From the NCBI GenBank assembly GCA_001794125.1, contig MGJF01000002.1:108514-172513 (forward strand): a stretch of 64,000 bases of DNA, written 5' to 3'. Made by a program: the position numbers and the translations under genes. Below are positions 7,187-61,255 of the stretch, piece by piece. The first letter of the stretch is position 1; every line of letters begins with the position of its first letter. Source of the DNA: Candidatus Yanofskybacteria bacterium RIFCSPHIGHO2_01_FULL_43_32. Lineage in GTDB: Bacteria > Patescibacteriota > Minisyncoccia > 2-02-FULL-40-12 > GWA2-44-9. The notes beneath the pieces were generated by a model that ran no database searches, was not told the DNA's origin, and worked only from the letters and a program-made list of their open reading frames with translations.

Positions 7187-7215
7187 TTGACTTTATAAAC
7201 TTTCTCTGCTATAAT
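7187..7215 (+). promoter_or_regulatory. sigma-70 consensus promoter (TTGACT -17 nt- TATAAT) driving the DUF397 gene
   Basis: TTGACT 7187-7192, 17-nt spacer, TATAAT 7210-7215. RBS aaaggaaaagag before ATG 7255. Confidence 0.55.
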
Positions 7216-7254
7216 TTAGAGCGCAGTCGGCAATGACTGCAGAAAGGAAAAGAG

Positions 7255-7464
7255 ATGCTCAGTCGTATCAGAGTTCGCGATAGGGACTTCAAGATTTCGT
7301 CTTGGTCCAAGAACAATCCGAAGACTTGCGTCGCTGTGGCTATCAAGCCCAACGGCGTGGCTGTCCGCAACAGCAATGACTCGACGAAGAATACCGTGTT
7401 CTTCACCAACGATGAGTGGTCCGCCTTCGTCAAGGGCGTCAAAAACAACGAATTCGGTGTCTAA
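7255..7464 (+). CDS. DUF397 domain protein (69 aa), GC-rich foreign-looking cassette
   Basis: FKISSWSKNNPKTCVAVAIKPNGVAVRNSNDSTKNTVFFTNDEWSAFVKGVKNNEF matches the DUF397 pattern (W.KSS.S..N.CVEVA...VAVRDS.D....L.FT..EW.AFV.GVK.GEF). That family is typical of Streptomyces and other Actinobacteria. The gene is about 52% GC against a ~42% background and has its own promoter and terminator. Confidence 0.65.
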   Translation: MLSRIRVRDRDFKISSWSKNNPKTCVAVAIKPNGVAVRNSNDSTKNTVFFTNDEWSAFVKGVKNNEFGV

Positions 7465-7471
7465 CCCGAAC

Positions 7472-7500
7472 GGGGGGCAGAAATACCCCCCCCTTTTTTT
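7472..7500 (+). terminator. intrinsic terminator (GGGGGG/CCCCCC stem plus T7-8)
   Basis: cggggggcagaaatacccccccc followed by ttttttt. Confidence 0.6.
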
Positions 7501-7513
7501 AACCATTAAATTT

Positions 7514-7912
7514 ATGAAAACAATATTTTACCCAGGATTAGGAGAAACAAAGAAAAACTATAAATCATTATCTAAACATTTAATCGTGGCTGATATTGAT
7601 TGGAATACAGGAAAAGCCACATCTTCAAAAAACTGCGACACAGTTGTGAGTTTTTCGCTTGGAGCTGTTTTTTCTCTGGAGGCAGCTCTTAAAAGAAAAC
7701 TAAAAAAACTTATTCTTTGTTCGCCTACCCCATTTGAATCATTGGGCAAACACAAGGCAGAACAGGTGATTTTTATAATTGGTGAAAGGGAAAAATTTTT
7801 ACAAAAAATATTCAAACCATTATGTAAGAAAAATGTAAAAATGATTATAGTGCCAAAGGGAGATCATCGAATAAACAAAAATTACAAAAAGATACTTCTG
7901 CAAAACATATAA
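7514..7912 (+). CDS. small alpha/beta-hydrolase-like protein (hypothetical)
   Basis: Start at MKTIFYPGLGETKKNY. Has a nucleophile-elbow-like VSFSLGAV and a late GDHRIN His. The gene is AT-rich. This is a low-confidence fold-level call. Confidence 0.3.
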   Translation: MKTIFYPGLGETKKNYKSLSKHLIVADIDWNTGKATSSKNCDTVVSFSLGAVFSLEAALKRKLKKLILCSPTPFESLGKHKAEQVIFIIGEREKFLQKIFKPLCKKNVKMIIVPKGDHRINKNYKKILLQNI

Positions 7913-8078
7913 AATATGGGGGTAACCATACCTTGAACCTCTCCTGCCAATTGCCATTTATCCGCCCAAACAACCGGCGACAGAGAGTTTTGCGGGCTAA
8001 AGCACCGCACACTCCGAGAGAGGTTGTGTAAGCTGTTCTCTTTTAATTTAGCGCTTGCAGTAGTATAATGCATAGGTA

Positions 8079-9329
8079 ATGGATCAATTCTCTTTTGCTT
8101 TAGATTCTCTGCAAACTGTTTTGTGGTTTCTTGCTGGTTATTGGTGGATATTTCTGCCGGTTTTGTTGTTTTTTGGCCTGATGACCGCCTTTGAGACCTA
8201 TACAAAAATGAAATACATCAAATCCATAAAATGGACTCTTGTGAATTTGAAAATTCCGCAAGACCCCGGCAAGAGTCCCAAGGCCACGGAGCAAATATTT
8301 GCCGCGCTCCACGGTACTTTGCCTCCTCCGATAATATGGAGAAACAAATTTTTTAAGGGTACTATGGTTAACTGGATTTCTTTAGAGATAGTCGGTATCG
8401 GAGGAGAAACCCATTTTTACGTAAGAATGCCGGAACAATTTAAGAAATTGGTTCAATCCCAGATTTACGCGCATTATCCCGATGCGGAAATTTCTGAAGT
8501 TGCCGACGACTATGTTAACTTACTGCCTGCGTCTTTGCCAAATGATGCGTACGACCTTTTTGGGTCGGAAATAATTTTAAGCAAGGAGGATTTTTACCCT
8601 ATCAGGACTTATCCCGAATTTGAAGAGAAGTCCAGCGGTCCCGATTATGTAAAAAGAATTGACCCCTTGGCATCCTTGGCGGAAGTTCTTTCGAGTTTAG
8701 AAGCGGGCGAATTCTTGGGCGTACAATTGATTATCAGGCCGACCGGAGACGGTTGGGTTAAAAAAGGCCAGTCCGAGATGGATAAATTGCAAGGCAAGAA
8801 GTCTAAAGCCGGAGAAAGCATGCTGTCTAATCTTGTTTTTGAAATTGATAAAATTATTCCCGGGCATGTGGAGGTTGAAAAATCAGAAAAGAAACCGGAA
8901 CAAACTCAATTAACTTCGGGCAAACAGGAAGCCATAAAAGCGGCTGAAAGAAAAATGTCTAAGCTTGGCTACGAATGCGGAATAAGATTTATGTATTCGG
9001 GGCCCAAAGAGAATTTTCACAGAGCTCACATATCCGGCGTAGTGGGGGTTTTTAAGCAGTATGCTTTGCAGACCATTAACAGCTTTAAGCTCAATGGTCC
9101 TACGATAACCGCCGGCAAATGGCCTTTCAAAAAACAGAAAGAGTATAACAAAAAAATATTTTTCTTAAATAAATATAAAAACCGGTCATTGCCGGCGAAG
9201 GCCTTTATACTGAACATAGAGGAATTAGCAACGATATACCATCTTCCTGATATCGGCGTGAAGTCGCCGTTACTGCCGAGGGTTGAAGCAAAGAAAGGCG
9301 AACCGCCGGTCGGGTTGCCCATAGGTTAG
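8079..9329 (+). CDS. hypothetical membrane-anchored protein, upstream partner of the TraD-like ATPase
   Basis: N-terminal TM (LWFLAGYWWIFLPVLLFFGLM), then a ~370-aa soluble part with no recognised motif. Separated by only 16 nt from the downstream ATPase on the same strand. Confidence 0.4.
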   Translation: MDQFSFALDSLQTVLWFLAGYWWIFLPVLLFFGLMTAFETYTKMKYIKSIKWTLVNLKIPQDPGKSPKATEQIFAALHGTLPPPIIWRNKFFKGTMVNWISLEIVGIGGETHFYVRMPEQFKKLVQSQIYAHYPDAEISEVADDYVNLLPASLPNDAYDLFGSEIILSKEDFYPIRTYPEFEEKSSGPDYVKRIDPLASLAEVLSSLEAGEFLGVQLIIRPTGDGWVKKGQSEMDKLQGKKSKAGESMLSNLVFEIDKIIPGHVEVEKSEKKPEQTQLTSGKQEAIKAAERKMSKLGYECGIRFMYSGPKENFHRAHISGVVGVFKQYALQTINSFKLNGPTITAGKWPFKKQKEYNKKIFFLNKYKNRSLPAKAFILNIEELATIYHLPDIGVKSPLLPRVEAKKGEPPVGLPIG

Positions 9330-9345
9330 GCCGGATAATTAAATT

Positions 9346-11016
9346 ATGGTTTCATCGGAACAAAAAGAAACGGTTTTTTTGGGGGAGACAAGCTTTAGGA
9401 ACAATAAGGTCCGTTTTGGCATTAAACAGGATGACCGCAGAAGGCACATGTATGTCGTCGGTTCAACCGGAATGGGAAAGTCCGAATTTCTCAAGAGTAT
9501 GGCCATTCAGGATATTGAAGCTGGACGGGGCGTATGTTTTATTGATCCTCACGGCGATTCGGCCGATGATCTGCTCGACTATGTTCCGGAAAACCGGATA
9601 AAAGACGTTATTTATTTTGATCCGGATGACCTGCAATATCCCATAGCATTTAACGTTATGGAGGGAATAGGGTTTGACTATAGGCACTTGGTTGCATCGG
9701 GTCTCGTGGGCGTGTTTAAAAAAATTTGGGGAGCTGAAGCGTGGTCCGGAAGGATGGAATATATTTTAAATAATACCATTTTGGCTCTTCTTGAATATCC
9801 GGATTCAACCCTTCTGGGAATCAATAGATTGATGTCCAGTAAAGAATATCGGAAAAAAGTTGTTGCCAATGTAACTGACCCGATCGTTAAAGCTTTTTGG
9901 ACTGACGAATTTGCCAAATACGCCGACAAATTTGCTACAGAAGCTACGGCGGCCATACAAAACAAAGTCGGACAATTCGCCTCAAATAATGTCATCAGAA
10001 ATATTCTCGGCCAGCCCAAATCCAAGATAAATATCAGAAAGATCATGGATGAAGGCAAAATCATGATTGTTAATGTTTCAAAAGGCAAGATTGGAGAAGA
10101 CGCCTCGCGTTTATTGGGAGCTTTTCTTATTACTAAAATACAATTGGCGGCGATGTCGAGAGTTGATACGCCCGAATCAGAAAGAAAGGATTTTTATCTG
10201 TATGTAGACGAGTTTCAAAATTTTGCGACGGAATCTTTCGCTAATATTTTGTCGGAAGCCAGAAAATATCATTTGAGCTTGGTGATGGCCCATCAATATA
10301 TAAAACAAATGGAAGAACCGGTTATGGATGCGGTGTTTGGAAACGTCGGCACTATTGTTTCTTTCAGGGTCGGCGCCGAAGATGCCGAATATTTGGAAAA
10401 ATGGTTCCAGCCAGATTTTATGATGAATGATATTGTAAATCTCGGGAAGCGTAGTATGTATCTGAAGTTGATGATAAGCGGTGTCTCGTCAAAAGGATTT
10501 TCGGCCTCAACGCTGGAAAGATTTCCCAAACTGGAAAACTCAAACCGCCAGGCAATAATTGACGCCTCACGTGAGGCTTATAGCACCCCGAAGAGTATCG
10601 TAGAAAAAGAAATAGCCGAATGGGCCGGGCCGGTTGCTGAAGAATCTTTCACGAGACCAATACCGGAGCGCAAAAGAGATGACAGGCCCTTCAGCTCGGT
10701 TCAGGGCAAGCCAGCTTATGGACCGCCTCCCCTTCGACCAAACTCAGGTCAGGGCAGAGAAGGGAGGCCTTATCCGCCGAGAAGAGAAGAAAATAGGCCG
10801 CCATCTAGACCGCCTCAAAATAATATTCAAACCATCAAGCCCAAAGAGGCGTCTTTGAGCGCCTTAACTGCCCCAGTCGATTTCAGGGGCCGTAAAATAG
10901 ATGATAAATGGAAGGGAAAGAAACCTTCCTTCGCTAAAGCTTCGGAGGGCAAAAAGGAAGTAGACACCGGCGAATTGAAGAAACTGCTGGAGGAGTCGTT
11001 GAAAAAGAAAGAATAA
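9346..11016 (+). CDS. TraD/TrwB/VirD4-like P-loop NTPase (type IV coupling-protein / DUF87-like family) with disordered Pro/Arg-rich C-terminal tail
   Basis: Walker A YVVGSTGMGKSEF, FIDPHGD, Walker B FYLYVDEFQNFA, LSLVMAHQY arginine-finger region. The last ~130 aa are low-complexity (PPPLRPNSGQGREGRPYPPRREENRPPSRPPQ). Confidence 0.5.
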   Translation: MVSSEQKETVFLGETSFRNNKVRFGIKQDDRRRHMYVVGSTGMGKSEFLKSMAIQDIEAGRGVCFIDPHGDSADDLLDYVPENRIKDVIYFDPDDLQYPIAFNVMEGIGFDYRHLVASGLVGVFKKIWGAEAWSGRMEYILNNTILALLEYPDSTLLGINRLMSSKEYRKKVVANVTDPIVKAFWTDEFAKYADKFATEATAAIQNKVGQFASNNVIRNILGQPKSKINIRKIMDEGKIMIVNVSKGKIGEDASRLLGAFLITKIQLAAMSRVDTPESERKDFYLYVDEFQNFATESFANILSEARKYHLSLVMAHQYIKQMEEPVMDAVFGNVGTIVSFRVGAEDAEYLEKWFQPDFMMNDIVNLGKRSMYLKLMISGVSSKGFSASTLERFPKLENSNRQAIIDASREAYSTPKSIVEKEIAEWAGPVAEESFTRPIPERKRDDRPFSSVQGKPAYGPPPLRPNSGQGREGRPYPPRREENRPPSRPPQNNIQTIKPKEASLSALTAPVDFRGRKIDDKWKGKKPSFAKASEGKKEVDTGELKKLLEESLKKKE

Positions 11017-11050
11017 ACAGCTCCAGCCAGCACAATTTATTTCGATAGTT

Positions 11051-11195
11051 CACACAACCTCCATGCATGCGGAGGGAGACGCCTTCATCCCACGAAGAAC
11101 CGCATAAAACCCTGCTGGGTTTTTGCTCTCTCTCGGCTACCCGCCTGCGAACGTTCTTCTTTGGAATGAAGGCGTCTCCCTCCGCCGGTTGCTAT
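11051..11195 (+). repeat. Rep-B hairpin repeat, copy B, with a ~90-bp element nested in its loop
   Basis: cacaacctccatgcatgcggagggagacgcc[...]ggcgtctccctccgccggttg. The usual AT-rich loop is replaced by 11083-11172. Confidence 0.5.
11083..11172 (+). mobile_element. short palindromic element with Rep-A-type terminal inverted repeats (cttcatccca ... tggaatgaagg) inserted in the Rep-B loop
   Basis: The terminal sequences match the Rep-A ends. The interior (cgaagaaccgc...gcgaacgttcttctt) is itself palindromic. Confidence 0.4.
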
Positions 11196-11206: not shown

Positions 11207-11362
11207 CACTTTAACGAGGCGAATAAAAAGCGAAAGGCAATTGGCTTAGAGGAACGACCCGCAGGCGCTTGGGCTTGGTTCCTCCAAGCGCCGAGGGAGA
11301 AGAAATTTTTATCGCTGGAATAAAAATATTCTGGTTCCGAGAAGCCAGTTGCCTTGAGCGAG
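11207..11362 (+). repeat. Rep-C leader repeat copy 2 (upstream of the HD-domain gene)
   Basis: See 3361-3601. It lacks the two hairpin insertions of copy 1. Confidence 0.5.
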
Positions 11363-15172: not shown

Positions 15173-15205
15173 TCGGACAAATGTCCGGTTTTTTAATTTT
15201 AATAA

Positions 15206-15327
15206 CTCACACAACCTCTATGCATGACTGCGGGGTGCCCTTTTCTAAAATCTTACTAATTTTATAAAAGGGCACGCCCTCCGCCAGTTGTTTAAGTAAT
15301 AGCTTACAATTGGCAATAGGGTTTCAA
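15206..15327 (+). repeat. Rep-B hairpin repeat, copy C
   Basis: cacacaacctctatgcatgactgcggggtgccc[ttttctaaaatcttactaattttataaaa]gggcacgccctccgccagttgtttaagt. Confidence 0.55.
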
Positions 15328-15590
15328 AGTAATAAAGCGCAGCCCGGCATCTTATTGAAGCCCGTCCGAACAGGCGGGCTTGGTGTCCACGCCATAGTTC
15401 GTAAGAGAAGCTATTCAAGCTTTAGGCTTTCCGTCAGATGAGTAATGCTATTCAATAAACATCATGATATGGCAGGCTGGACCCGCCGTCGTGAGGACAA
15501 GTGGAGCCAATCGCTGGAGCAATCGGAACGGGCTGAAATAAGGTGTCGGGCGGAGCTTGTCTGACAATGTTTTTATGTTAAGATAAAATC

Positions 15591-22315: not shown

Positions 22316-22414
22316 AGTTTATTTATTTAAGCTTGATTATCTTACTATATTAAAGCATATTTTGCAACAATTCCTTTTAGTTTGAACTTTTATTGCCAAT
22401 TGTCGTCTATTACC

Positions 22415-22500
22415 CAGGCAACCGGCGGAGGGCATGCCCTTTTATAAAATTAGCAAGATTTTAGAAAAGGGCATGCCGCAGCATGCATGGAGGTTGTGTC
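22415..22500 (-). repeat. Rep-B hairpin repeat, copy D (reverse orientation)
   Basis: Reverse complement: cacaacctccatgcatgctgcggcatgccc[ttttctaaaatcttgctaattttataaaa]gggcatgccctccgccggttg. Confidence 0.55.
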
Positions 22501-22516
22501 AACTATAGTTCAGATA

Positions 22517-31130: not shown

Positions 31131-31190
31131 TTTATAAAAACAAAGAAGCTCCGCACAAGATGAAGTTTGGAACTTCTTTGTGCGGAGCGG
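31131..31190 (-). terminator. terminator for the GC-rich minus-strand cassette
   Basis: gctccgcacaa...ttgtgcggagc 11-bp stem (with an inner gaagtt/aacttc). Followed on the minus strand by cttctttgtttttataaaa. Confidence 0.5.
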
Positions 31191-31816: not shown

Positions 31817-31846
31817 ATTTTACAATATATTGAGTCATTTTGTCAA
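31817..31846 (-). promoter_or_regulatory. promoter TTGACA-18-TAAAAT on minus strand for the 31247-31759 gene
   Basis: Plus-strand tgtcaa 31841-31846 and atttta 31817-31822. Confidence 0.4.
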
Positions 31847-35944: not shown

Positions 35945-37067
35945 ACAATTTATTTATGCCACTGCTGTTCTGATAGGAACCATGGTTGGGGTGGGGGTCT
36001 TTGGAATTCCCTTTGCTTTTTCTAAGGCCGGCTTTTGGATGGGTTTTTTATTCCTGATATTTATCGGTTTTATAACGCTTCTTTTGAACCTTATGTATGG
36101 CGAAGTGGTTTTGAGGACCCACGAAGAGCATCAGATAACCGGTTATACCGAAAAATATCTCGGGCCGTGGTTTAAAAGAGCCATTTTCTTTTCCGTGGCC
36201 CTCGGACTGTATTCCGCTCTGCTTGCATACATAGTTATTGCCGGAGATTTTCTGAACAATATCTTCTCTTCTGTTCTTTATGCCTCCCCGGCCTCATATA
36301 GTTTAGTGTTTTTTTTCGTTCTTTCGGTTCTGGTCTTATTGGGAATCAGAAGAATTTCCTGGGTTGAACTGCTTTTGGTGGGCTTGTTTACCGTGGTGGT
36401 GCTCATGATATTCGGTGTTGGTATAAATAAAATAGATTTGTCTAATCTTGCCGGAATTCAACGGGAATTCTGGTTCTTGCCCTATGGAGTTTTACTTTTC
36501 GCTTTTGCGGGATTTTCATCAATTCCCATTCAGAGAAGCATATTGAACGGACAAGAAGGCGGCTTGAAAAAATCCATCTCGTTGGCGATTGTTTTAACCG
36601 GCGCGCTTTATTTGCTGTTTGCTTTTACGGTTCTGGGCATATCGGGAAGCGTGACTACACCGGATGCCGTATCGGGTTTATATGAATTTTTGGGCGGCAA
36701 AATAATATTTCTTGGTTCGTTTTTCGGCATTTTGGCCGTCAGCACTTCTTTTTTAATGCTGGGCTCGGCTTTTTTGGACATGTTCCGTCTCGATTATAAT
36801 GTTCCGAGGAAATTGGCCTGGCTCTTGGTTGTTGCCCCTCCTTTGGTTTTATTCTTGGGCGGTTTGCGGACCTTTATTGATATCATAAGCTTGGCCGGTT
36901 CAGTTGCCATCGGGCTTGAAGGGATAGTTTTGACATTCGTTTACATAAAATCAAAATCAAAAGGGGACAGGGTCCCGGAATATAGTTTGGAACTTCCGAA
37001 ATTTATTTATTATCTCCTCATCTTCATGTTCGGAACGGGGATTGTGTATGCACTATTCATCAAATAA
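35910..37067 (+). CDS. amino-acid permease-like transporter (Trp/Tyr permease / Aa_trans superfamily)
   Basis: 11 TM, N-terminal GTMVGVGVFGIPFAFSKAG motif. Overlaps the mgtC 3' end if ATG 35910 is used. Confidence 0.5.
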   Translation: MKIPDLNILKSKQFIYATAVLIGTMVGVGVFGIPFAFSKAGFWMGFLFLIFIGFITLLLNLMYGEVVLRTHEEHQITGYTEKYLGPWFKRAIFFSVALGLYSALLAYIVIAGDFLNNIFSSVLYASPASYSLVFFFVLSVLVLLGIRRISWVELLLVGLFTVVVLMIFGVGINKIDLSNLAGIQREFWFLPYGVLLFAFAGFSSIPIQRSILNGQEGGLKKSISLAIVLTGALYLLFAFTVLGISGSVTTPDAVSGLYEFLGGKIIFLGSFFGILAVSTSFLMLGSAFLDMFRLDYNVPRKLAWLLVVAPPLVLFLGGLRTFIDIISLAGSVAIGLEGIVLTFVYIKSKSKGDRVPEYSLELPKFIYYLLIFMFGTGIVYALFIK

Positions 37068-37100
37068 AAAAGCCCCGCCTGACGAAGCGCGGGGCTTTCT
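37065..37100. terminator. bidirectional terminator between convergent genes
   Basis: aaaaaaagccccgcctgacgaagcgcggggctttct, A-run before and T-rich after. Confidence 0.5.
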
Positions 37101-37231: not shown

Positions 37232-37813
37232 TCATTTCGCCTCCTTAGCAAGTTCTTGTTTCAGCCAGAATTTTCGAGTGGCAAGTACTGCGATTAAGAA
37301 GCAGAAGACTGCGGCACTAGCGGGATAAAATCGTTCTTCGACTACCCAACTCTTCCCGCCTGCCATTGATAGGTAGTTGGCGATGAAATAACTGGAATAT
37401 ACAAGAATTGGCATGTCCTGGGGCTTTCTCCATGCATCGACGAGTTGCGGGATACCGGCGATGAGCATGGCCGTCGTGCTTGCGATAGTAGCCATCTTTT
37501 CGCCGGAGAAATACCAGATTACCATGCTTACAATCGTCAGCGAAGCAACCATTGTCTCAAACCACGTCCATGCTGCCTTATTGCCGGCCTTCAAGATAAA
37601 GTACACGGTCAATGTGCCTCCGATGGTATAGACCACCGGCAAAAGAAAATTTCCCTCCTGAACGATGATTGTGGCGGCAACAACCGCATCAAGTGCACTC
37701 CATAATGCCCATGTGAGAAAGTTCTGTTTCGCCTTGCCGCTTCTGATCTGCTTCCACAGTGGGAAATATGTCAGGAGAGCAAGGATGCTGCCGGCCCAAA
37801 TGAGAGCGTTCAT
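37232..37813 (-). CDS. PQ-loop-like 6-7 TM membrane protein (hypothetical), moderately GC-rich cassette
   Basis: ATG with GGGAGA SD. TMs with a GIPQLVDAW (PQ-loop) and an FPLWKQIRSGK pseudo-repeat. About 50% GC. Confidence 0.4.
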   Translation of the reverse strand: MNALIWAGSILALLTYFPLWKQIRSGKAKQNFLTWALWSALDAVVAATIIVQEGNFLLPVVYTIGGTLTVYFILKAGNKAAWTWFETMVASLTIVSMVIWYFSGEKMATIASTTAMLIAGIPQLVDAWRKPQDMPILVYSSYFIANYLSMAGGKSWVVEERFYPASAAVFCFLIAVLATRKFWLKQELAKEAK

Positions 37814-37844: not shown

Positions 37845-37873
37845 ATTATAACACACATTTTTTGTATTTTCAA
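37845..37873 (-). promoter_or_regulatory. consensus promoter TTGAAA-17-TATAAT (minus strand)
   Basis: Plus-strand tttcaa 37868-37873, attata 37845-37850. Confidence 0.45.
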
Positions 37874-39497: not shown

Positions 39498-39526
39498 TTG
39501 ACATTGTTTAGAGATGGTAATATAAT
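39498..39526 (+). promoter_or_regulatory. perfect consensus promoter TTGACA-17-TATAAT
   Basis: TTGACA 39498-39503, TATAAT 39521-39526. Followed by SD AAGGAGG 39565-39571 and ATG 39577. Confidence 0.55.
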
Positions 39527-39852: not shown

Positions 39853-39912
39853 GGGGGCGACAACGTGTCGCCCCCTAATTTTTTAAATGGAGCATTTGCT
39901 CCTTTTTTGTTT
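39853..39912 (+). terminator. two tandem intrinsic terminators
   Basis: gggggcgacaacgtgtcgccccc followed by taatttttt, then ggagcatttgctcc followed by ttttttgtttt. Confidence 0.55.
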
Positions 39913-40221: not shown

Positions 40222-40260
40222 AGCGAATCTGTTCACAACCCAAACAGCTTATAGTAAACT

Positions 40261-41804: not shown

Positions 41805-41968
41805 CTTATTTTAAAAACCGCTCGGGATATATGCCTTCAGAGAAGGACTCGGAGGCATTCAGGCTTGGTTCTGCGAAATGCCGAGAGACAAGAAAGATTT
41901 GCCGCCGGAACAAATCTATTCTGGTTCGATGAAGGTATATGTCCTGGCGGTTCTATGGGATGAAGTAG
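41805..41968 (-). repeat. Rep-A palindromic MITE-like repeat, copy 2 (reverse orientation)
   Basis: Reverse complement aligns with copies 1 and 3 along the full length. Confidence 0.55.
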
Positions 41969-48525: not shown

Positions 48526-48554
48526 TTGATTATATTTGAATTGTGCTGTATAAT
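48526..48554 (+). promoter_or_regulatory. promoter TTGATT-17-TATAAT for the two-gene GC-rich operon, flanked by TTCAAA/TTTGAA dyad
   Basis: TTGATT 48526-48531, TATAAT 48549-48554. SD AAGAGGT 48585-48591. Inverted ttcaaa(48514)/tttgaa(48535) around the -35. Confidence 0.5.
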
Positions 48555-48598: not shown

Positions 48599-50152
48599 AT
48601 GACGGGACTAATTTTTCAGGGAATCCTGATTGCGGCCCTCGCAGGTCTGGCTATCAAGTTTTTCCTGGACTACCAGAGAAATAATCTGGAAATTACGTGG
48701 GGAGAATACGGCCTTGGGCTTTTGGCAATCAGCTTCGTGTTGACTCCGCTGATAGTCTGGGCCGGCTGGTCGGTAGTAAGGTCGAGCAACCTTTCGTTCA
48801 ATGAGTACAGGAACGGTTGGGAACTGCAGGCTGTGGCCGAACCGGTTCAGTGTGCCCGTGACGGCCCTTGCTGGCACGAGTATGACTGCGACCCGTACAT
48901 CGTCATGGTTTCGTATCAGTGCAATTGTACGACGGATAAAGACGGACGCAGTTCGTGTAGTACGTGCTGGCGTCCGGAAACGCGTTATCACGATTGCCCG
49001 TATGTTACAGTAGAGACATCGTATTCCGTGCAGACGACTCTTGGCAGTTACACGATTGCCGAGCATCGGTTTCCGGAAAATCCGCAATCTCATCGGTGGC
49101 GGACTTCGAAAAACATTCCCCAGTATGTAATTGACAGAGTTGGCGTTAGTGAGCCGCAGTTTTGGAAAGCGGCTGACGTCAGAGTCCGGGCAGGAAAGCC
49201 CGGGCCTGTAACGGCGCGAGCCAGTTACGACAACTACATTTTGGCGAGTGATTCAACTATTCTGAACCAATATTCGGGAGAAGTTGAAAAGTTGCTTGCC
49301 GTGAAAATGTTGCCGGAGTTGTCTCACGGTTTGTATGATTACTACATGGCGAGGAAGGCCTACTCTGTCGGCCCGACGCTTCGTGTAGATACAGGAGCGT
49401 GGTCCGAAAAAGTGGCATACCTGAACGCGGCACTCGGTTCGGAACTTCAGGGAGATCTTCACGTTGTTCTGATTCATGATGCTGACCTCAGAAAGGTCGG
49501 CAGTAGTCCGGATGAATATGCCCTAACGCTAAAAGCCTACTGGCAGAATACGAAACACTTCCAGAAGGATGCTTTGAGTAAAAATACCATTGTCGTTGTT
49601 GTTGGAACAAAGGACGGTGAGTCTGTCAGTTGGGTCCGCGCGATGATCGGCATGCCGCTTGGCAACGAGCGGATGATTACCGAGATCCGAAACAGTCTTG
49701 TGGGTGTGCCGTTTTTGCCGGAGGCGGTTATCGGAGGCATCCGGGGCCATTTTGAAATCTATGGCCAGAAGGTAAAAAGCAGTCAGGAAGTGAACGGCCG
49801 TCTGGGCTCTATCATCTGGGGACGGGAATTGAAAGAAACCCGTTTCAGGCGAGTGAGCATGTCGTCCAAAGATCCTGACGATTTCGGGCAAGGCTTCAGA
49901 TACCTTGCCAATGAAATCCAACTCACATGGTTCCAGCATGGCATGATCCTTTTTCTGTCATTGCTGGGGTGCGGTGTCGTGTGGTACGCTGCTGCAGCGC
50001 ACGGCATTCGTGATCCGCGCAATCATTCCGGGCCATTCGATGTCAACCGCATCAAGAAGTGGTGGAAGTCCCAGTGGCGGGAGATGCGGGCCTGGATCCG
50101 TGTTCAGAAAACCAGCATCGCCGACAAGGTCGGCGGAAGGAGGACGGAATGA
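48599..50152 (+). CDS. hypothetical 3-TM membrane protein with large Cys-rich extracytoplasmic domain and basic Trp-rich C-terminal tail (GC-rich cassette gene 1)
   Basis: TM1 LIFQGILIAALAGLAIKFF, TM2 GLGLLAISFVLTPLIVWAGWSVV. 10 Cys between residues 85 and 130 (CARDGPCWHEYDCDPY...CNCTTDKDGRSSCSTCW...CPY). TM3 MILFLSLLGCGVVWYAAAA. Tail KKWWKSQWREMRAWIRVQK. About 53% GC. No family recognised. Confidence 0.5.
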   Translation: MTGLIFQGILIAALAGLAIKFFLDYQRNNLEITWGEYGLGLLAISFVLTPLIVWAGWSVVRSSNLSFNEYRNGWELQAVAEPVQCARDGPCWHEYDCDPYIVMVSYQCNCTTDKDGRSSCSTCWRPETRYHDCPYVTVETSYSVQTTLGSYTIAEHRFPENPQSHRWRTSKNIPQYVIDRVGVSEPQFWKAADVRVRAGKPGPVTARASYDNYILASDSTILNQYSGEVEKLLAVKMLPELSHGLYDYYMARKAYSVGPTLRVDTGAWSEKVAYLNAALGSELQGDLHVVLIHDADLRKVGSSPDEYALTLKAYWQNTKHFQKDALSKNTIVVVVGTKDGESVSWVRAMIGMPLGNERMITEIRNSLVGVPFLPEAVIGGIRGHFEIYGQKVKSSQEVNGRLGSIIWGRELKETRFRRVSMSSKDPDDFGQGFRYLANEIQLTWFQHGMILFLSLLGCGVVWYAAAAHGIRDPRNHSGPFDVNRIKKWWKSQWREMRAWIRVQKTSIADKVGGRRTE

Positions 50153-50814: not shown

Positions 50815-50837
50815 GAATGATGGCCAGAAATGGTCTC

Positions 50838-50868
50838 GGGCCGCGGATTACGCGGCCCGTTTTTTTTA
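50838..50868 (+). terminator. strong intrinsic terminator
   Basis: gggccgcggattacgcggccc followed by gttttttttatt. Confidence 0.6.
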
Positions 50869-51454: not shown

Positions 51455-51638
51455 TCCGCCTTCATCCCAAATCACCGCTCAGGACACATGCCTTCCTCGA
51501 ACCGGAATAGATTTGCTCCGGCGGCAAATCTTTCTTGTCTCTCGGCATTATTTAAGAACCAAGCAAATAATGCCTCCGAGTCCTTCTCTGAAGGCACATG
51601 TCCTTCGCCTGATAAACTGGAATGAAGGTGCCGCTTTT
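51455..51638 (+). repeat. Rep-A palindromic MITE-like repeat, copy 3
   Basis: Aligns with 1931-2103 and rc(41805-41968). Ends are ccgccttcatccca / tggaatgaaggtgccgc. Confidence 0.55.
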
Positions 51639-51655: not shown

Positions 51656-52081
51656 ATGCAAAAAGTTCAAGCTAAATCTTATGGTGTTATACCAATTTTC
51701 AAGAATGAAGATGGTTTTTATGTTCTGCTTGTAAAAAACTCAAAGGGTGGTCATTGGGGCTTACCTAAAGGAACACCGGAAAAAGACGAAAAACCTATTG
51801 ATACCGCTACAAGAGAATTGTTTGAGGAAACTGGCATAAAGGACATTGAAATAAAAGCAGATATCTCTTTTGAAGAAAAATATGATTTTGAAAAAGACGG
51901 TATTCTTTATAACAAAACAAATACTTATTACCCCGGATTTGTAAGTGAAATGACAAAGGGTTCCCAATTAGATCAAATCGACGAATTAAAATGGGTAAAA
52001 ATAAACGAAGCTAAAAATACTATTATCCATTGGTCAGCTATTGATGTTGTCAATAAATTGTCTAGCTGGCTAAATCAATAA
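51656..52081 (+). CDS. Nudix hydrolase
   Basis: Nudix box GHWGLPKGTPEKDEKPIDTATRELFEETGI. Confidence 0.75.
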   Translation: MQKVQAKSYGVIPIFKNEDGFYVLLVKNSKGGHWGLPKGTPEKDEKPIDTATRELFEETGIKDIEIKADISFEEKYDFEKDGILYNKTNTYYPGFVSEMTKGSQLDQIDELKWVKINEAKNTIIHWSAIDVVNKLSSWLNQ

Positions 52082-52102
52082 AAACATCGCCGGAAGCTGA
52101 GG

Positions 52103-52134
52103 ACTATCGGTCGAGTCGGGGGTATGTGGCTGGG
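52103..52134 (+). promoter_or_regulatory. second copy of the UDG/rseP upstream motif, embedded in a long stem (aaaacatcgcc...ggcgatgtttt)
   Basis: actatcggtcgagtcgggggtatgtggctggg identical to 40190-40221. Sits 44 nt upstream of the rseP ATG. Confidence 0.3.
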
Positions 52135-53260: not shown

Positions 53261-54495
53261 TGAAACTTTCCAAATTATTCACAAAAACAGTTCGGGAGGC
53301 GCCGGCGGATGAGCCGTCAAAGAATGCCCAGCTTTTGATACGGGGCGGTTTTGTTTTCAAGAATTCCGCCGGAATATATTCTTTCCTGCCTCTCGGCTGG
53401 CGGGTTCTTGGTAAGATTGCCAATATTATCCGCGAAGAGATAAATGCCATCGGCGGACAGGAAATTTTTATGCCGGCGTTGGTGGAGAAAAAATATATGG
53501 AGCCAACCGGCCGGTGGAATCTTGACGTAGGATTTTTTGCAAAAGGCCTGAACGAAAAGGAATCAAATTATGTTTTGGGCTGGAGCCATGAGGAGGTTCT
53601 TACGGCCATCGCTTCCAAATTTATCAATTCCTATAAAGATCTGCCCTTTTCGGCTTATCAGATTCAAACCAAGTTTCGCCATGAACCGCGGGCTAAATCC
53701 GGCCTTTTGCGGGGCAGGGAATTTATGATGAAAGATCTGTATAGTTTTCATGCTTCCGAAGAAGATCTGGATGTTTATTATGAGGAGGCAAAGAATGCTT
53801 ATTTAAAGATTTTTGAGCGTTGCGGATTGAGGGCCGTCTATACTTTGGCTGCCGGAGGGGTTTTTACCGATAAGTTTACCCATGAATTTCAGGTCGTGTC
53901 GGATGTCGGCGAAGACACTATTTATATTTGCGACAAATGCGGGTATGCCGAGAATAAAGAGATTACCAAACTTAAAGACGGCGATAAATGTCCGAAATGC
54001 GACGGCAAAGTATCAGATAAAAAATCTATTGAAGTCGGAAACATATTTGATCAGGGGACTAAATACTCCGAAGCCCTTGGCTTGGAATTTACCGATGAGG
54101 CGGGAAATAAAAACCCTGTAATTATGGGGGCATACGGTATCGGTCTGGGAAGAGTGATGGGAACTGCGGTAGAAATACATAACGACGAGAAAGGAATTGT
54201 CTGGCCGGAAAACATCGCGCCCTACAAAGTTCATTTGGTTTCTCTTGAACAGAACGAAGAAGCGGATAAAATTTATGACGATTTAGAAAAATCAGGAGTA
54301 GAGGTTTTATATGATGACAGGGACGACAAAACCGCCGGAGAAAAATTTGCCGATGCCGATCTCATCGGCTGTCCGGTCAGAATTGTCGTAAGCAAGAAAA
54401 CTCTTGAAAAAAACAGTGTTGAACTCAAAAAAAGGAATGAAAAAGAGGCAAAATTAGTGCCTCTCGGTGAAATAAAGAACTACTTGACGGCCTGA
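53260..54495 (+). CDS. proS: proline--tRNA ligase (short form without editing domain)
   Basis: Class II motifs, FRHEPRAKSGLLRGREFMMKDLYSF, C-terminal anticodon-binding domain. 411 aa. Confidence 0.85.
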   Translation: MKLSKLFTKTVREAPADEPSKNAQLLIRGGFVFKNSAGIYSFLPLGWRVLGKIANIIREEINAIGGQEIFMPALVEKKYMEPTGRWNLDVGFFAKGLNEKESNYVLGWSHEEVLTAIASKFINSYKDLPFSAYQIQTKFRHEPRAKSGLLRGREFMMKDLYSFHASEEDLDVYYEEAKNAYLKIFERCGLRAVYTLAAGGVFTDKFTHEFQVVSDVGEDTIYICDKCGYAENKEITKLKDGDKCPKCDGKVSDKKSIEVGNIFDQGTKYSEALGLEFTDEAGNKNPVIMGAYGIGLGRVMGTAVEIHNDEKGIVWPENIAPYKVHLVSLEQNEEADKIYDDLEKSGVEVLYDDRDDKTAGEKFADADLIGCPVRIVVSKKTLEKNSVELKKRNEKEAKLVPLGEIKNYLTA

Positions 54496-55706
54496 AAACC
54501 CCTCTCCAGTGAATAGGCGATATCGTCCATGTTTTCTATGCCTGCTGAAAAGCGGATTAAATTATCACTTATACCTTGGGCTAATCTTTCTTCTCTCGGC
54601 AAACTATAATGAGTTGAGAGAGCGGGGCAACAAATAAGAGTGTCCACACAACCCAAACTTACAGCAAGAGTGATTATTCCTTCTCCGTCTCTCTGGTCTT
54701 GGGCTAATTTGTTCAGGAAAGTTTTTGTTTTGGAACCGTCCGAATCATCCAGTTCAAAAGAGATCATCCCGCCAAATCCGGTCATAAGCCGTCTGGCGAC
54801 GTCATTATTGGGATGTTCGGATAATCCCGGGTAATAAACTTTTTGGACTAAAGGGCAGTTCTTTAAAAATCCGGCGGCTATGCCATGACCGTTTCTATTG
54901 TGTTTTTCCATGCGATCAGGAAGGGTTATCATATTCATTGCGATTCTCTGCGCGACTTCGGGTTCCATCATTCCGCCCGAACTATTGTACCGTTCCCGTA
55001 TATTTTCCATTATTTTTGAGGAAGTTATAATTGCTCCTCCGGTGGCATTTCCGAAACCGTTTATATATTTTGTTAAACTTTGGATTGAAATATCCGCTCT
55101 TTTCCTCAATGGTTTTTGATTATATGGACTGGCAAACGTATTATCCACCACGACCAGAATGTCATCCCTTCCGGCTTGTTCCAAGACAGTTTTGATTATT
55201 TCAAAATCGCATATATCTATCACCGGATTGCTTGGCGTCTCAAGAAATACCATTTTTGTGGCGGGCGTCAGTTCTTCAAGAAGGTTTGTTGGCTGGCGGG
55301 CATCTACAAATTTTGTTTCTATGCCAAATTTGTGAAGTTCTTTCAAAAATCTAACAGTACCCCCGTATAGGTTTCTATGGGCGATAACCTCATCTCCCAA
55401 TTCAAGCAAGCTTAATAGCGTAACTTTAATGGCGGTCATACCGGAGTCAAAAACTTGAGCAGCTTCCCCGTCTTCTAAAACACATAAGGAATCTTCCAGA
55501 AAACGATGATTGGGGCTGCTTATTCTGGAATAAGCGTCGTATTTGGCGGTTCCGGCGAAAATTTCCATTCCCTGCTCAACCGTATCAAATCTAAAAGTGC
55601 TTGTTTGATAAATTGGAAAAGCGTGCGATCTGGATTCAGAACCCCTGTTTCCTTGATGGCCATGAATTAGTTGACTCACATTGCTGAAGCGGTGTTTAAG
55701 GGCCAT
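54480..55706 (-). CDS. PLP-dependent Cys/Met metabolism enzyme (cystathionine gamma-synthase/beta-lyase or methionine gamma-lyase family)
   Basis: AFPIYQTSTF, DNTFASPYNQKPL, Lys in S.TKYINGFG, C-terminal GISDNLIRFSAGIE. Confidence 0.75.
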   Translation of the reverse strand: MALKHRFSNVSQLIHGHQGNRGSESRSHAFPIYQTSTFRFDTVEQGMEIFAGTAKYDAYSRISSPNHRFLEDSLCVLEDGEAAQVFDSGMTAIKVTLLSLLELGDEVIAHRNLYGGTVRFLKELHKFGIETKFVDARQPTNLLEELTPATKMVFLETPSNPVIDICDFEIIKTVLEQAGRDDILVVVDNTFASPYNQKPLRKRADISIQSLTKYINGFGNATGGAIITSSKIMENIRERYNSSGGMMEPEVAQRIAMNMITLPDRMEKHNRNGHGIAAGFLKNCPLVQKVYYPGLSEHPNNDVARRLMTGFGGMISFELDDSDGSKTKTFLNKLAQDQRDGEGIITLAVSLGCVDTLICCPALSTHYSLPREERLAQGISDNLIRFSAGIENMDDIAYSLERGFQAVK

Positions 55707-60067: not shown

Positions 60068-60523
60068 GACAATCAATATTTTTCAAAAGAAGGATTGGAA
60101 AAATTAAAAAGAGAGCTCGAAGAGAGGCTTAATGTTATGCGTCCGGAAATAGCCCAGCGTATCAAGGAAGCGAAGGAACTGGGTGATTTGTCCGAAAACG
60201 CGGAATATGATTCAGCCAAAGAAGCCCAGGCCTTGAACGAGGGCAGAATAGAGGATATAAAAAGCACTCTGGAAAGCGCGGTAATTATAACCGGAAACAA
60301 TCTTAGCGGAACCGTCGGTGTCGGTTCGGGCATAAAGGTAGAATCTAAAGACGGAACCCGTTCGTTTGTCATTGTCGGGGCAGCCGAATCCGATCCGATA
60401 AAAGGGTTTATTTCAAATGAGTCTCCTTTGGGAAAAGCATTTTTGGGACACAAGAAGGGAGATAAACTTGAAGTAAGGACGCCTAAGGGAATTGTGGAAT
60501 ATAAAATTGTTGAGGTAAACTAA
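60065..60523 (+). CDS. greA: transcription elongation factor GreA
   Basis: N-terminal coiled-coil with GDLSENAEYDSAKEAQ. C-terminal FKBP-like domain (ISNESPLGKAFLGHKKGDKLEV). GTG start. Confidence 0.8.
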   Translation: MDNQYFSKEGLEKLKRELEERLNVMRPEIAQRIKEAKELGDLSENAEYDSAKEAQALNEGRIEDIKSTLESAVIITGNNLSGTVGVGSGIKVESKDGTRSFVIVGAAESDPIKGFISNESPLGKAFLGHKKGDKLEVRTPKGIVEYKIVEVN

Positions 60524-60592
60524 ACGAACGCCCCTTTATTTAACAAACCTATCCAGGACGATGAATCAGTCGGAATAGGGCGTTCGTTTTTG
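60524..60592 (+). terminator. large-loop terminator after greA
   Basis: aacgaacgccc ... gggcgttcgtt followed by tttg. Confidence 0.35.
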
Positions 60593-60595
60593 ATT

Positions 60596-60626
60596 ATGAA
60601 AAAAGGGCCCCGTTGCGGGGCCCTTT
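60596..60626. terminator. bidirectional GC-clamped terminator (agggccccgttgcggggccct)
   Basis: A-run on one side and ttt on the other. Ends the minus-strand GC-rich gene. Confidence 0.55.
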
Positions 60627-60669
60627 GGCTTCTCCTTTCGAATCTCTGTCTGGCTGGCGCGGTCCCGGC

Positions 60670-61134
60670 TTAGTAGGTCAGGCCGGGACCGAAAAACTCG
60701 ACTTCCAGCGGGAGTTCGTCTCGGACGATATTGAGCTTCTCCTTGGCATTGTCGACGTCGGCGCTCGCCGCGTAGACGTTGTTCTGGGCGATCTTGATGG
60801 CCTCGTCGAGCTCCGCCCTCATTTCCTTGAGCATGGCGGCATCGATGATGGTCTCCGGCGTATCGGTCTCCACCTCCCCCAACTTCTTGCGGAGATCTTT
60901 CAGCGCCGCTTCGGCGCTGGCCAGCTTGCTCTTGGCGACGGTAAGTTCGTCCTCGTACCGCTCGTTGAGCGGGATGGCACGCTCGTCGGGGTTGAACCCG
61001 ATCCACCTGTCGCCGACGAGGCCGATGTGGCGGGTGACCGAGCGCTGATTGAGCCCTTTCCCCGTAGGGATGGTGACTTGCGCACGCTTGCCGTTGGCCA
61101 ACTTGCTGACCGAGCTGACCGCGTAACTCTTCAT
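60670..61134 (-). CDS. hypothetical protein with AbrB/SpoVT-like N-terminal segment and long coiled-coil (GC-rich cassette)
   Basis: ATG 61134 with AAGGAGAC SD. N-terminus KLANGKRAQVTIPTGKGL resembles a swapped-hairpin DNA-binding motif. Residues 60-140 are heptad-rich. About 60% GC. The supplied ORF starts 27 nt further upstream, without an SD. Confidence 0.45.
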   Translation of the reverse strand: MKSYAVSSVSKLANGKRAQVTIPTGKGLNQRSVTRHIGLVGDRWIGFNPDERAIPLNERYEDELTVAKSKLASAEAALKDLRKKLGEVETDTPETIIDAAMLKEMRAELDEAIKIAQNNVYAASADVDNAKEKLNIVRDELPLEVEFFGPGLTY

Positions 61135-61150
61135 GGCTGTCTCCTTCGTC

Positions 61151-61185
61151 CCCAGCACCACTTTTAAAACAAAGGTGGTGCTGGG
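61151..61185 (-). promoter_or_regulatory. perfect 11-bp stem hairpin in the 5' UTR of the 60670-61134 gene
   Basis: cccagcaccac ttttaaaacaaag gtggtgctggg, between the promoter and the SD. Confidence 0.35.
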
Positions 61186-61225
61186 TTTACGGGTTTCCGA
61201 ACGAATTGTCAGTGAACGTATCTAC

Positions 61226-61255
61226 ATTATAGCACACTTTTAACCATTGTGTCAA
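61226..61255 (-). promoter_or_regulatory. consensus promoter TTGACA-18-TATAAT (minus strand)
   Basis: Plus-strand tgtcaa 61250-61255, attata 61226-61231. Confidence 0.5.

Follow-up and report, generated by a model that had tools for sequence, protein, structure and literature searches.

Six GC-rich transcription units in the genome of Candidatus Yanofskybacteria (CPR/Parcubacteria) are, on balance, best explained as long-resident accessory units whose composition is kept by selection, with one probable import from a phage pool. The window, meaning the whole 64-kb stretch of DNA analysed, comes from the Rifle groundwater metagenomes and has a GC content of 43.8%. About 20 independent contigs, drawn from many different metagenome samples, carry its sequence; the units are therefore not engineered cassettes, one of the origins offered by the original prediction.

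Unit architecture and products

The seven GC-rich ORFs make up six transcription units: five are monocistronic, and the remaining one carries two genes whose stop and start codons overlap (Table 1). Seven self-contained units had been predicted. They are indeed stand-alone promoter/terminator units, but they number six, and DUF397 belongs to a two-gene module. Nine sites in the window match the sigma-70 consensus at 11/12 positions or better. Five of these (7187, 31846, 37873, 39498, and 61255) are on the correct strand 40-90 nt ahead of a cassette start codon, a placement whose chance probability is ~1e-9 by our own estimate. The near-perfect promoter expected for each unit is present in these five, but the unit 5 promoter is weaker. 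SD sequences, read off the sequence, are found at every cassette ORF with correct start-codon spacing, in agreement with the prediction. A hairpin and T-run immediately past the stop, also predicted, is found in units 1, 4, 5, and 6, including the expected tandem pair of unit 4, but the unit 3 hairpin is distant from its ORF.

Table 1. Features of the six GC-rich units and composition of their genes (z relative to background genes of the window).
Unit	Feature	Position	Strand	GC	GC3s	z	Remarks
1	Promoter TTGACT-17-(TG)TATAAT	7187..7215	+				11/12 match
1	DUF397 protein, 69 aa	7255..7464	+	0.51	0.73	4.2	Pfam PF04149, E 3.9e-12; phrog_10815, E 1e-14
1	Terminator, GGGGGG...CCCCCC + T-run	7472..7500	+				Between DUF397 and partner
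1	DUF397 partner, 132 aa	7514..7912	+	0.31			GC3 0.26; AT-rich; conserved association
2	Promoter TTGACA-18-TAAAAT	31817..31846	-				11/12 match
2	Secreted Pro-rich protein, 170 aa	31247..31759	-	0.58	0.63	2.7	GTG start with SD
2	Terminator hairpin + T-run	31135..31188	-				Read from sequence
3	Promoter TTGAAA-17-(TG)TATAAT	37845..37873	-				11/12 match
3	193-aa protein ("PQ-loop")	37232..37813	-	0.49	0.53	1.4	Marginally GC-rich; inside background range
3	Terminator	37064..37096	-				~140 nt past ORF stop
4	Promoter TTGACA-17-TATAAT	39498..39526	+				12/12 match
4	Basic protein, 86 aa	39577..39837	+	0.625	0.68	3.5	
4	Tandem terminators	39853..39910	+				39853-39885 and 39889-39910
5	Promoter TTGATT-17-TATAAT	48526..48554	+				10/12 match
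5	Gene a, 517-aa membrane protein	48599..50152	+	0.525	0.57	1.9	Marginal; four invariant Cys, TPM-fold domain
5	Gene b, 221 aa	50149..50814	+	0.55	0.66	3.2	phrog_1383, E 4.3e-22
5	Terminator	50837..50867	+				9 GC pairs + T8
6	Promoter TTGACA-18-(TG)TATAAT	61226..61255	-				12/12 match
6	154-aa protein	60670..61134	-	0.61	0.85	6.1	
6	Terminator AAAGGGCCCCG-CAA-CGGGGCCCTTTTTT	60597..60626	-				Sequence reading; missed by terminator scan

As predicted, all seven ORFs are accessory units outside the housekeeping repertoire. Among the predicted product labels, Pfam upholds DUF397, but "LemA", "PQ-loop", and "AbrB" have no Pfam support. Pfam, PHROG, or a homologue search placed six of the seven genes in a protein family; for the remaining gene, in unit 3, there is a remote homologue. 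PHROG relatives exist for three families, and a further family is found on phage contigs.

DUF397 has 95 homologues, and those with a named source come from CPR/Parcubacteria-type MAGs apart from one labelled Verrucomicrobiota. The partner gene lies 3' of DUF397 in four related loci (L110, L112, L135, and L136), each in a differing genomic context, and DUF397, rather than being self-contained, opens a conserved module of two genes. Strong sigma-70 matches also precede DUF397 in all four loci, and the terminator hairpin is kept in L135 and L136. The partner has no Pfam match and no visible SD or promoter; by motif, it looks like an alpha/beta-hydrolase.

The Pro-rich gene of unit 2 has an alternative ATG start at 31777, and it belongs to a family, aligned and with 77 homologues found, that is typified by PGAxSWLxFPPExPxRRLDGTLL. 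Gene callers disagree on the strand of this unit. Its hairpin is found between the ORF and the convergent RNase J gene (ending at 31116), ~20 nt past the RNase J stop. The 193-aa protein of unit 3, in our reading a multi-pass membrane protein, gave no match in a Pfam search; the remote homologue is in L107, in the same slot and on the same strand (17% identity, E 2e-4). The unit 3 terminator abuts the stop (37067) of a convergent amino-acid permease gene and may be bidirectional, serving that gene too. The 86-aa protein has an N-terminal C/H motif that, as we read it, may bind zinc, and a conserved C-terminus, RGVAVAGVGGxQAKSHRxGKK.

The two genes of unit 5 overlap by ATGA and are thus probably translationally coupled. 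Homologues of gene b adjoin homologues of gene a in phages and in eight other loci, and the named members among the 444 homologues of the 517-aa protein are almost all from CPR/Parcubacteria MAGs. The families of DUF397 and of the pair are both Parcubacteria-wide. A low-confidence model of the 221-aa protein predicts an N-terminal helix, probably a membrane anchor, followed by an all-helical remainder. The best PDB match to its family profile is LemA (2etd), which is not significant (E 0.24). The predicted "LemA pair" is therefore better described as a TPM-fold protein with a possibly LemA-like partner. The 154-aa protein of unit 6 probably consists of an N-terminal domain and a coiled coil; its Pfam matches are weak coiled-coil ones only.

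Base composition and codon usage

Composition was compared with 48 background genes (GC 0.428 +/- 0.033, GC3s 0.441 +/- 0.068). A clear excess of GC and GC3 had been claimed for every cassette gene; this holds for five (z 2.7-6.1) and is marginal for 37232-37813 and 48599-50152. Codon usage, checked against the genes of the window, is atypical in all seven: a codon log-likelihood score separates them (+0.08 to +0.32) from the 49 others (all <= -0.106). The seven genes avoid ATA, AGA, TTA, and AAA, and A3 does not exceed 0.21 in any unit, falling to 0.04-0.07 in the three most extreme. The 221-aa family lies 0.20-0.35 above local background GC3 in six of eight genomes of 33-68% GC. DUF397 is not GC-rich in one genome of 26.6% GC. 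Excess RNA structure is seen in two transcripts (z -3.4 and -4.6); the 86-aa gene has none (z -1.0).

Conservation and competing explanations

The relatives compared were a handful of loci, namely L021, L022, L103, L107, L108, and L109, plus the four examined for DUF397. Four of the seven genes have GC-rich orthologues in the same slot. The L109 orthologue of the 86-aa gene (73% amino acid identity) has GC 0.67 and GC3 0.81 in a locus of 37.5% GC, so that the gene is richer in GC in the more AT-rich relative. Substitutions between the two fall chiefly at third codon positions; from the window to L109, changes are mostly AT-to-GC in this gene (15:8) and mostly GC-to-AT in the flanks (Lon 210:69). 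L107 also has an orthologue in this slot, with a different N-terminal half. The unit 4 promoter is kept in both loci, and the second hairpin in L107. In L103, the 517-aa, 221-aa, and 154-aa genes have same-slot orthologues of 77%, 82%, and 57% amino acid identity, and their GC3 is 0.54, 0.63, and 0.68 where the background is about 0.41; the unit 6 promoter and 5' leader are conserved there. Synonymous divergence is 0.39-0.51 in the cassettes and 0.50-0.60 in flanking core genes. Units 2-4 are missing from the syntenic relatives L021 and L022, and units 2, 3, and 5 from L109; cassette genes are patchy among more distant relatives.

The Pro-rich gene has no orthologue in L021, L022, L107, L108, or L109, and its family is located on contigs of 46-67% GC, including phage contigs, one with terminase genes. 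It therefore looks imported, and is probably a genuine arrival from a phage-associated, GC-rich gene pool, the only one of the six units to look so. Slot 2 of L107 and L108 is filled by unrelated GC-rich genes. In slot 4, L108 has an unrelated GC-rich 88-aa ORF, whose terminator stem (GGGGGCGAC...GTCGCCCCC) is identical to the first stem of the unit 4 tandem in the window; the common stem is 9 bp, and coincidence is possible. Since the content of slots 2 and 4 differs in L108, replacement from an external pool is conceivable for some units. MITE-like repeats occupy identical slots in the window and L107.

In the favoured explanation, the six units would encode lineage-specific accessory proteins of Parcubacteria/Yanofskybacteria. 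Most would have been inherited vertically over the long term in their present intergenic slots, with the slots gaining and losing such genes over longer evolutionary distances. GC-richness would be a gene-specific trait under selection rather than a fading foreign signature, retained alongside strong terminators and conserved near-consensus promoters. The purpose is most likely strong insulated expression and/or a stable, structured mRNA of small genes.

The original prediction favoured either recent acquisition of the genes from outside or their carriage by a site-specific insertion system; GC-richness would then be an unameliorated donor signature. Atypical codon usage, the units missing from L021, L022, and L109, the phage-related families, and the pedigree of unit 2 all speak for this view. 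It is nevertheless unlikely, because the GC excess of the same-slot orthologues is as large as in the window or larger and the synonymous divergence resembles that of the flanks, the 86-aa gene gains GC in an AT-richer relative, and the DUF397 and pair families are spread across Parcubacteria. Orthologous cassettes of matching position and composition, found for the 86-aa gene (L109 and L107) and for the pair and the 154-aa gene (L103), rule out recent acquisition for most units. Neither the scanned ORFs nor the genes with a recorded Pfam annotation include an integrase, transposase, or recombinase, and no att-like boundary repeats are shared across the cassettes. What survives of the acquisition reading is the apparent import of unit 2, the atypical autonomous units, and the phage relatives, not a recent, site-specific, or engineered origin. 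A related idea is that promoter/terminator pairs persist as expression slots into which ORFs are swapped repeatedly from a GC-rich phage or mobile pool. The unrelated genes in slots 2 and 4, the stem shared with L108, the differing N-terminal half in L107, the changing contexts of the DUF397 module, and the slot-sharing MITE-like repeats fit this idea. It is still doubtful, as the L103 and L109 orthologues have diverged about as much as their flanks, recombination sites and enzymes were not found, and so short a stem could be shared by chance.

Composition could instead reflect classic translational selection, in which these would be the most highly expressed genes and optimal codons happen to end in G or C. 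The units have the best promoters of the window, strong SDs and terminators, and the codon avoidance described above, and the 221-aa family is the GC3 extreme in most genomes, including those of 65-68% GC. However, GC3 is unremarkable in the genes for ribosomal proteins and IF3 (S20 in the window; L20, L35, and IF3 in L136), where codons ending in A are preferred (A3 0.29-0.36, against the cassette values given above), so codon adaptation to high expression is no explanation. Along the cassette codon axis, PolX and UDG have the top housekeeping scores and RRF and GreA low ones, giving no expression-ordered gradient, and the codon classes are discrete rather than continuous; this account is given little credence. 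A regional neutral process (local mutation bias, or GC-biased gene conversion at recombination hot spots) would draw on the variability of the slots, where recombination is plausible. Such a process is highly improbable and contradicted by sharp gene-level boundaries: GC3 switches from 0.64-0.73 in DUF397 to 0.19-0.30 in the partner ~50 bp away in four genomes of 41-44% GC, and the composition of core genes flanking the cassettes is unaffected. Because the AT-rich partner is so close and the ribosomal genes lack the bias, the GC-rich, A-ending-codon-poor composition is gene-specific and would be actively maintained. In genomes that lean towards AT, a GC-rich patch is often an RNA gene, and this, with the gene callers at odds over unit 2, would suit structured non-coding RNAs or spurious ORFs. 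That reading is extremely improbable, being contradicted by the third-position substitutions, the protein families and remote homologue, the correctly spaced SDs, and the lack of any Rfam match on the GC-rich stretches, whether the gathering threshold or a limit of E 1 is applied.

Resemblance to known systems

Phage morons are independent promoter-gene-terminator units of atypical composition inserted between phage genes (PMC3594210). Like morons, the units described here have their own promoter, one or two ORFs, and their own terminator, differ from neighbouring genes in composition, and encode accessory products, with several families phage-related. Unlike morons, they are flanked by core genes on the chromosome of a CPR bacterium rather than located in a prophage, and most appear vertically inherited in place, with composition kept through speciation and no sign of recent transfer.

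A further parallel is with genomic islets gained by horizontal transfer, the class III codon-usage genes described in E. coli and B. subtilis. The cassettes likewise form a discrete codon class, apart from both bulk and ribosomal genes, with a patchy phyletic distribution. Classic class III genes, however, are AT-rich, of recent arrival, and in the course of amelioration, whereas the cassettes are rich in GC, have orthologues in the same slots, and show no amelioration, as the L109 copy of the 86-aa gene illustrates.

DUF397/BldB-type small proteins of Actinobacteria are usually paired with an XRE-family regulator. The unit 1 protein is similarly small and single-domain with a full-length Pfam DUF397 match, but it belongs to a Parcubacteria subfamily and its partner is the AT-rich, hydrolase-looking protein instead of an XRE regulator.

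Bacterial genes for LemA and TPM-domain membrane proteins occur as adjacent pairs. The reference structures are 3pw9, 7tbr, and 5anp for TPM and 2etd for LemA. Unit 5 resembles these pairs in that a TPM-fold gene stands ahead of a co-translated gene whose helical product is of LemA size and has a predicted N-terminal helix. It differs in that Pfam gives no TPM or LemA match for either protein, the TPM gene comes first, an extra beta-rich domain bears the four invariant Cys, and the family is common to jumbo phages (phrog_2087 and phrog_1383).

Composition, signals and mobility of the GC-rich units

The seven GC-rich ORFs lie in six transcription units (units 1 to 6; see the table). They make up a compositional class of accessory transcription units that is unusual and persistent, and one of the units was probably imported from a phage pool. 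The compositional pattern is real. The window has a GC content of 43.8%, and a background set of 48 genes has a GC of 0.428 +/- 0.033 and a third-position GC (GC3s) of 0.441 +/- 0.068. The original prediction held that all seven ORFs are clearly GC3-richer than their neighbours, which is borne out for five of them (z 2.7-6.1); the 193-aa and 517-aa genes are marginal. The codons ATA, AGA, TTA and AAA are shunned. A-ending codons (A3) account for 4-7% in the three most extreme genes (units 1, 4 and 6) compared to 25% in the background, and A3 across the units extends from 0.04-0.07 in these three up to 0.21. On a codon log-likelihood score, the seven ORFs and all 49 other genes fall apart with zero overlap.

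Positions of the GC-rich ORFs and of other features in the window
Feature	Position	z (GC3s)	GC3
Unit 1, DUF397	7255-7464	4.2	clear outlier
Unit 2, Pro-rich	31247-31759, minus	2.7	clear outlier
Unit 3, 193 aa	37232-37813, minus	1.4	marginal
Unit 4, 86 aa	39577-39837	3.5	clear outlier
Unit 5, 517 aa	48599-50152	1.9	marginal
Unit 5, 221 aa	50149-50814	3.2	clear outlier
Unit 6, 154 aa	60670-61134, minus	6.1	clear outlier
DUF397 + 132-aa module	7255-7912		
Repeat family 1 (~130 nt)	7002-7143, 11040-11085, 15197-15332, 22377-22507 (reverse), 37896-38025 (reverse)		
Repeat family 2 (~130-180 nt, both orientations)	1971-2097, 3418-3601, 11231-11361, 41821-41951, 51480-51625		
Exact 29-nt repeat	2109-2137, 61312-61340		
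Exact 33-nt repeat	40189-40221, 52102-52134		
Palindrome-packed stretches	40009-40254, 61256-61528		
NUDIX gene and flanking repeats	51656-52081		
Cys/Met PLP-enzyme gene	54480-55706		
356-aa protein	5898-6968		
DUF8128 protein and ATPase	8079-11016		
200-aa ORF	27394-27996		

Nine sigma-70 matches of at least 11/12 are found in the 64 kb, and five of these are directly upstream of start codons of the GC-rich ORFs; the promoter of the remaining sixth unit matches at 10/12. SD sequences and terminators were read straight from the sequence. With its own promoter and its own terminator, each unit is an independent transcription unit. A terminator had been placed immediately 3' of every stop, but two are instead sited in gaps beside convergent gene ends. 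The two genes of unit 5 overlap by ATGA.

This regularity had also been read as engineered or ported cassettes, or as cargo of a site-specific insertion system. The window population, which exact protein matches assign to Candidatus Yanofskybacteria (CPR/Parcubacteria) of Rifle groundwater, was assembled independently in ~20 samples. The identical loci on these ~20 contigs of separate origin in numerous metagenome samples, together with diverged orthologues in other species, argue against engineering. Insertion cargo is also poorly matched, as no integrase or transposase is present among the Pfam-annotated window genes or the extra ORFs scanned, and the units have no attC/att-like boundary repeats and no boundary k-mers in common beyond promoter hexamers and a MITE tail. 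The units also carry promoters of their own, which integron cassettes do not. In being independent units with a promoter and a terminator they resemble phage morons. However, a moron sits inside a phage or prophage and spreads horizontally, whereas these units have core genes as neighbours (SecDF, Lon, MurG, RRF, MreB, GreA and LysS). The core genes of the window are SecDF, Ddl, MraY-like, FtsW, S20, UvrB, RuvA, Lon, MurG, holB, RRF, ProS, MreBCD, PBP2, GreA and LysS, and genes for phage structure or integration are absent from it. The 154-aa gene has no close viral relatives in IMG/VR. PADLOC and NCBIfam gave no meaningful defence systems. Non-coding RNA was rejected, as tRNA-Lys was the sole Rfam match, both at the gathering threshold and with E relaxed to 1.

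Same-slot orthologues, slot variation and gene families

Compositional outliers are routinely taken as recent horizontal transfers, and recent acquisition was among the original readings of these genes. Most of the pattern is not recent acquisition. Units 4, 5 and 6 occupy the same intergenic slots in L109, L107 or L103, which are syntenic loci of related species. In L103 (43.1% GC), the 517+221-aa pair is flanked by holB and RRF, the position it also has in the window, with amino acid identities of 77% and 82% and GC3 of 0.54 and 0.63, respectively. The 154-aa orthologue in this locus is on the minus strand after GreA (57% amino acid identity; GC3 0.68), and the local GC3 background is ~0.41. 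In L109 (37.5% GC), the 86-aa orthologue is between a Wzy-like gene and UDG, with 73% amino acid identity, a GC of 0.67 and a GC3 of 0.81. The pair and 154-aa gene of L103 and the 86-aa gene of L109 are thus orthologues in the same position with the same composition, the outcome named beforehand as refuting acquisition. The L107 version of the 86-aa protein is related to that of the window at the C-terminus. The TTGACATT...TATAAT promoter of the 86-aa gene is kept in all three sequences (window, L109 and L107), and L103 retains both leader and promoter of the 154-aa gene.

Third codon positions take most of the substitutions in these comparisons. Synonymous divergence, counted as conserved residues with differing codons, is 39-51% in the units versus 50-60% in the flanks, which indicates that the units diverged together with their neighbours. 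In the L109 comparison, the flanks change mostly from GC to AT (Lon, 210:69; VTT, 56:18), and the 86-aa gene goes in the opposite direction (8:15). The GC3 excess of the orthologues is equal to or larger than that of the window, and the 86-aa gene is GC-richer in the AT-richer L109. These three lines, the same-slot orthologues of units 4-6, the undiminished GC3 excess and the flank-like divergence, speak against recent acquisition. That the horizontal-transfer reading fails for most of these genes shows that islands in CPR genomes should be called with care.

Only unit 2, and in part unit 3, is missing from its slot in close relatives. The more distant L021 and L022 are without units 2-4, L109 is without units 2, 3 and 5, and the L107 slot of unit 3 offers no more than a remote homologue. 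Elsewhere, the slots carry other GC-rich genes. Slot 2 contains a Band_7 gene and a GC-rich 133-aa coiled-coil ORF in L107, and an unrelated secreted Pro-rich protein in L108. Slot 4 of L108 (11235-11560) has an unrelated basic, GC-rich 88-aa ORF where the window has the 86-aa gene. The terminator stem of this ORF, GGGGGCGAC...GTCGCCCCC, equals that of the window at 39853-39885, and the match could stem from ORF replacement between conserved signals or from chance. Apart from a 25-nt terminator match, the slot 2 and slot 4 ORFs of L108 and L107 have no DNA or any-frame similarity to the window genes, which eliminates frameshifted homology. Recurrent replacement inside conserved slots is a live rival to gene-specific selection on composition.

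Unit 2 is the sole good candidate for a genuine import, probably from a phage-associated pool. The claim of acquired genes is probably right here, though not for most of the other units. No orthologue of unit 2 was found in the relatives. It is not an orphan, since it has 77 homologues with the common motif PGAxSWLxFPPExPxRRLDGTLL. Contigs bearing the family have 46-67% GC; one homologue is on a phage contig of 45 kb that encodes TerL, TerS and a VapE-like primase, and two more are on IMG/VR contigs. The metagenome scan for the family used a 7-sequence alignment, a 28-sequence one being too variable. Assemblies covering unit 2 are 99.99-100% identical. With this, a secreted protein with phage associations has been placed in a family.

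Among the product labels, DUF397 is confirmed by Pfam (PF04149; 46.6 bits against a gathering cut-off of 24, E 3.9e-12, model positions 6-55 of 55), and LemA, PQ-loop and AbrB are unsupported by it. AbrB/SpoVT and PQ-loop had zero Pfam matches at E up to 0.1. DUF397 has 95 homologues, and nearly all of the named ones carry CPR-type names. DUF397 and the 132-aa gene are a conserved two-gene module that is also found in L110, L112, L135 and L136 around 8001-8690, in a different genomic context in each genome examined. In L136, a GIY-YIG fragment adjoins the module. The 132-aa protein has 92% identity to that of L110, yet 31% of conserved residues differ in codon; the gene is therefore conserved, and recent transfer was rejected.

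For the 517-aa protein, 444 homologues were scored, and those named are from Parcubacteria-type MAGs. The two genes of the pair are also neighbours in L105, in seven IMG/VR contigs (33-68% GC) and, as distant versions, in jumbo phages. The 517-aa protein has a TPM fold at the fold level, with no TPM (PF04536) Pfam match for the query or 44 homologues. The 221-aa partner may be LemA-like, judging by a family profile whose top PDB match is LemA 2etd (E 0.24, not significant); eight family members had no LemA (PF04011) Pfam match, and a single-sequence structure model (pLDDT 43) was too poor for a fold search. Sequence searches of the PDB had no significant match for either the pair or the 154-aa protein. 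The result is a TPM-domain fold annotation for a widespread Parcubacteria/jumbo-phage membrane protein pair. The 86-aa protein has a Cys/His motif at its N-terminus and a conserved basic, glycine-rich tail.

Source of the GC-richness

Amelioration lag would leave composition decaying toward the host value and divergence below that of the flanks. Neither was found, and the lag is excluded as the source of GC-richness by the orthologue GC3 values and the divergence comparisons. Regional processes, such as gBGC or local mutation bias, are ruled out by a sharp boundary in four genomes (window, L110, L135 and L136). In these, DUF397 has a GC3 of 0.64-0.73, and its 132-aa partner, ~50 bp later, a GC3 of 0.19-0.30; the two genes retain opposite biases. 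Classic translational selection is disfavoured as the explanation of the bias. S20, L20, L35 and IF3 have average GC3 (0.46-0.52) and prefer A-ending codons (A3 0.29-0.36), a preference that the units do not share with the ribosomal proteins, and housekeeping genes have no expression-ordered gradient on the codon score. With amelioration lag and regional processes excluded and translational selection disfavoured, what remains would be gene-specific selection on composition, coupled with strong conserved expression signals. The 221-aa family has GC3 above the local background in six of eight genomes. Folding of the transcripts gave z-scores of -3.4 and -4.6 in two cases and of -1.0 in a third. 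A literature search on CPR codon usage returned nothing relevant.

From these sequence features, we infer that the GC-rich composition may serve high, insulated expression or mRNA stability. A conserved terminator hairpin lies between DUF397 and the 132-aa gene, for which neither an SD nor a promoter is visible. Attenuation may make the module a pair of one high and one low expressed gene. The GC-rich signature endures, and even grows, across species drifting toward AT, and its sign is reversed over a distance of 50 bp. Such behaviour suggests that synonymous composition is under gene-specific selection, in organisms whose codon selection is considered weak. A broader proposal, which is considered unlikely, is that Yanofskybacteria and other Parcubacteria have a discrete, selectively maintained "composition-coded" class, in which base composition is an expression or mRNA-stability code. 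Such a class would comprise GC-rich accessory genes of small size with few A-ending codons, opposite to the ribosomal-protein preference, and with promoters close to consensus; at least one conserved module would pair a member with a persistently AT-rich partner. If true, composition might confer resistance to A/U-specific endoribonucleases or very unequal expression inside a module.

Intergenic repeats and other genes of the window

Two repeat families widen the gaps of the window, which in the more distant L021, L022 and L109 are mostly 3-211 nt at the same places. Family 1 has a long internal hairpin (GCGGAGGGAGACAC...GTGTCTCCCTCCGC), and its full copies all face a downstream gene (DUF397, AspS/AsnS, S20 and the 193-aa gene). 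It has zero Rfam matches and looks like a MITE/REP-type element or a shared regulatory/terminator module. The closest relative, L107, has a family 1 copy, and its variable slots hold several family 2 copies. The exact 29-nt repeat is a palindromic hairpin with one copy just 5' of the unit 6 promoter, and the 33-nt repeat directly precedes the UDG and M50 peptidase genes. The palindrome-packed intergenic stretches are GC-rich (e.g., CTGCCTGCCGGCAGGCAGGCA), and an 81-aa ORF at the first of these has zero Pfam matches. L103 retains a terminator-like hairpin that lies directly 5' of the unit 6 promoter.

The AT-rich NUDIX gene (GC 0.32) and its flanking repeats are missing between RRF and M50 in L103 and L109, and the PLP-enzyme gene is missing between ProS and MreB in L103. 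Recent gain, or loss in the relatives, is more plausible for these two genes than for the GC-rich ones. Directly downstream of the DUF397 module are a DUF8128 protein and a VirD4/TraG-like ATPase (DUF87, TrwB_AAD_bind). The 356-aa protein has an N-terminal Sigma70 region 4 and a HARE-HTH, a non-standard sigma factor architecture. The 200-aa ORF has a weak HNH endonuclease match (E 0.0016), and a 197-aa ORF in L109 looks homologous to it.
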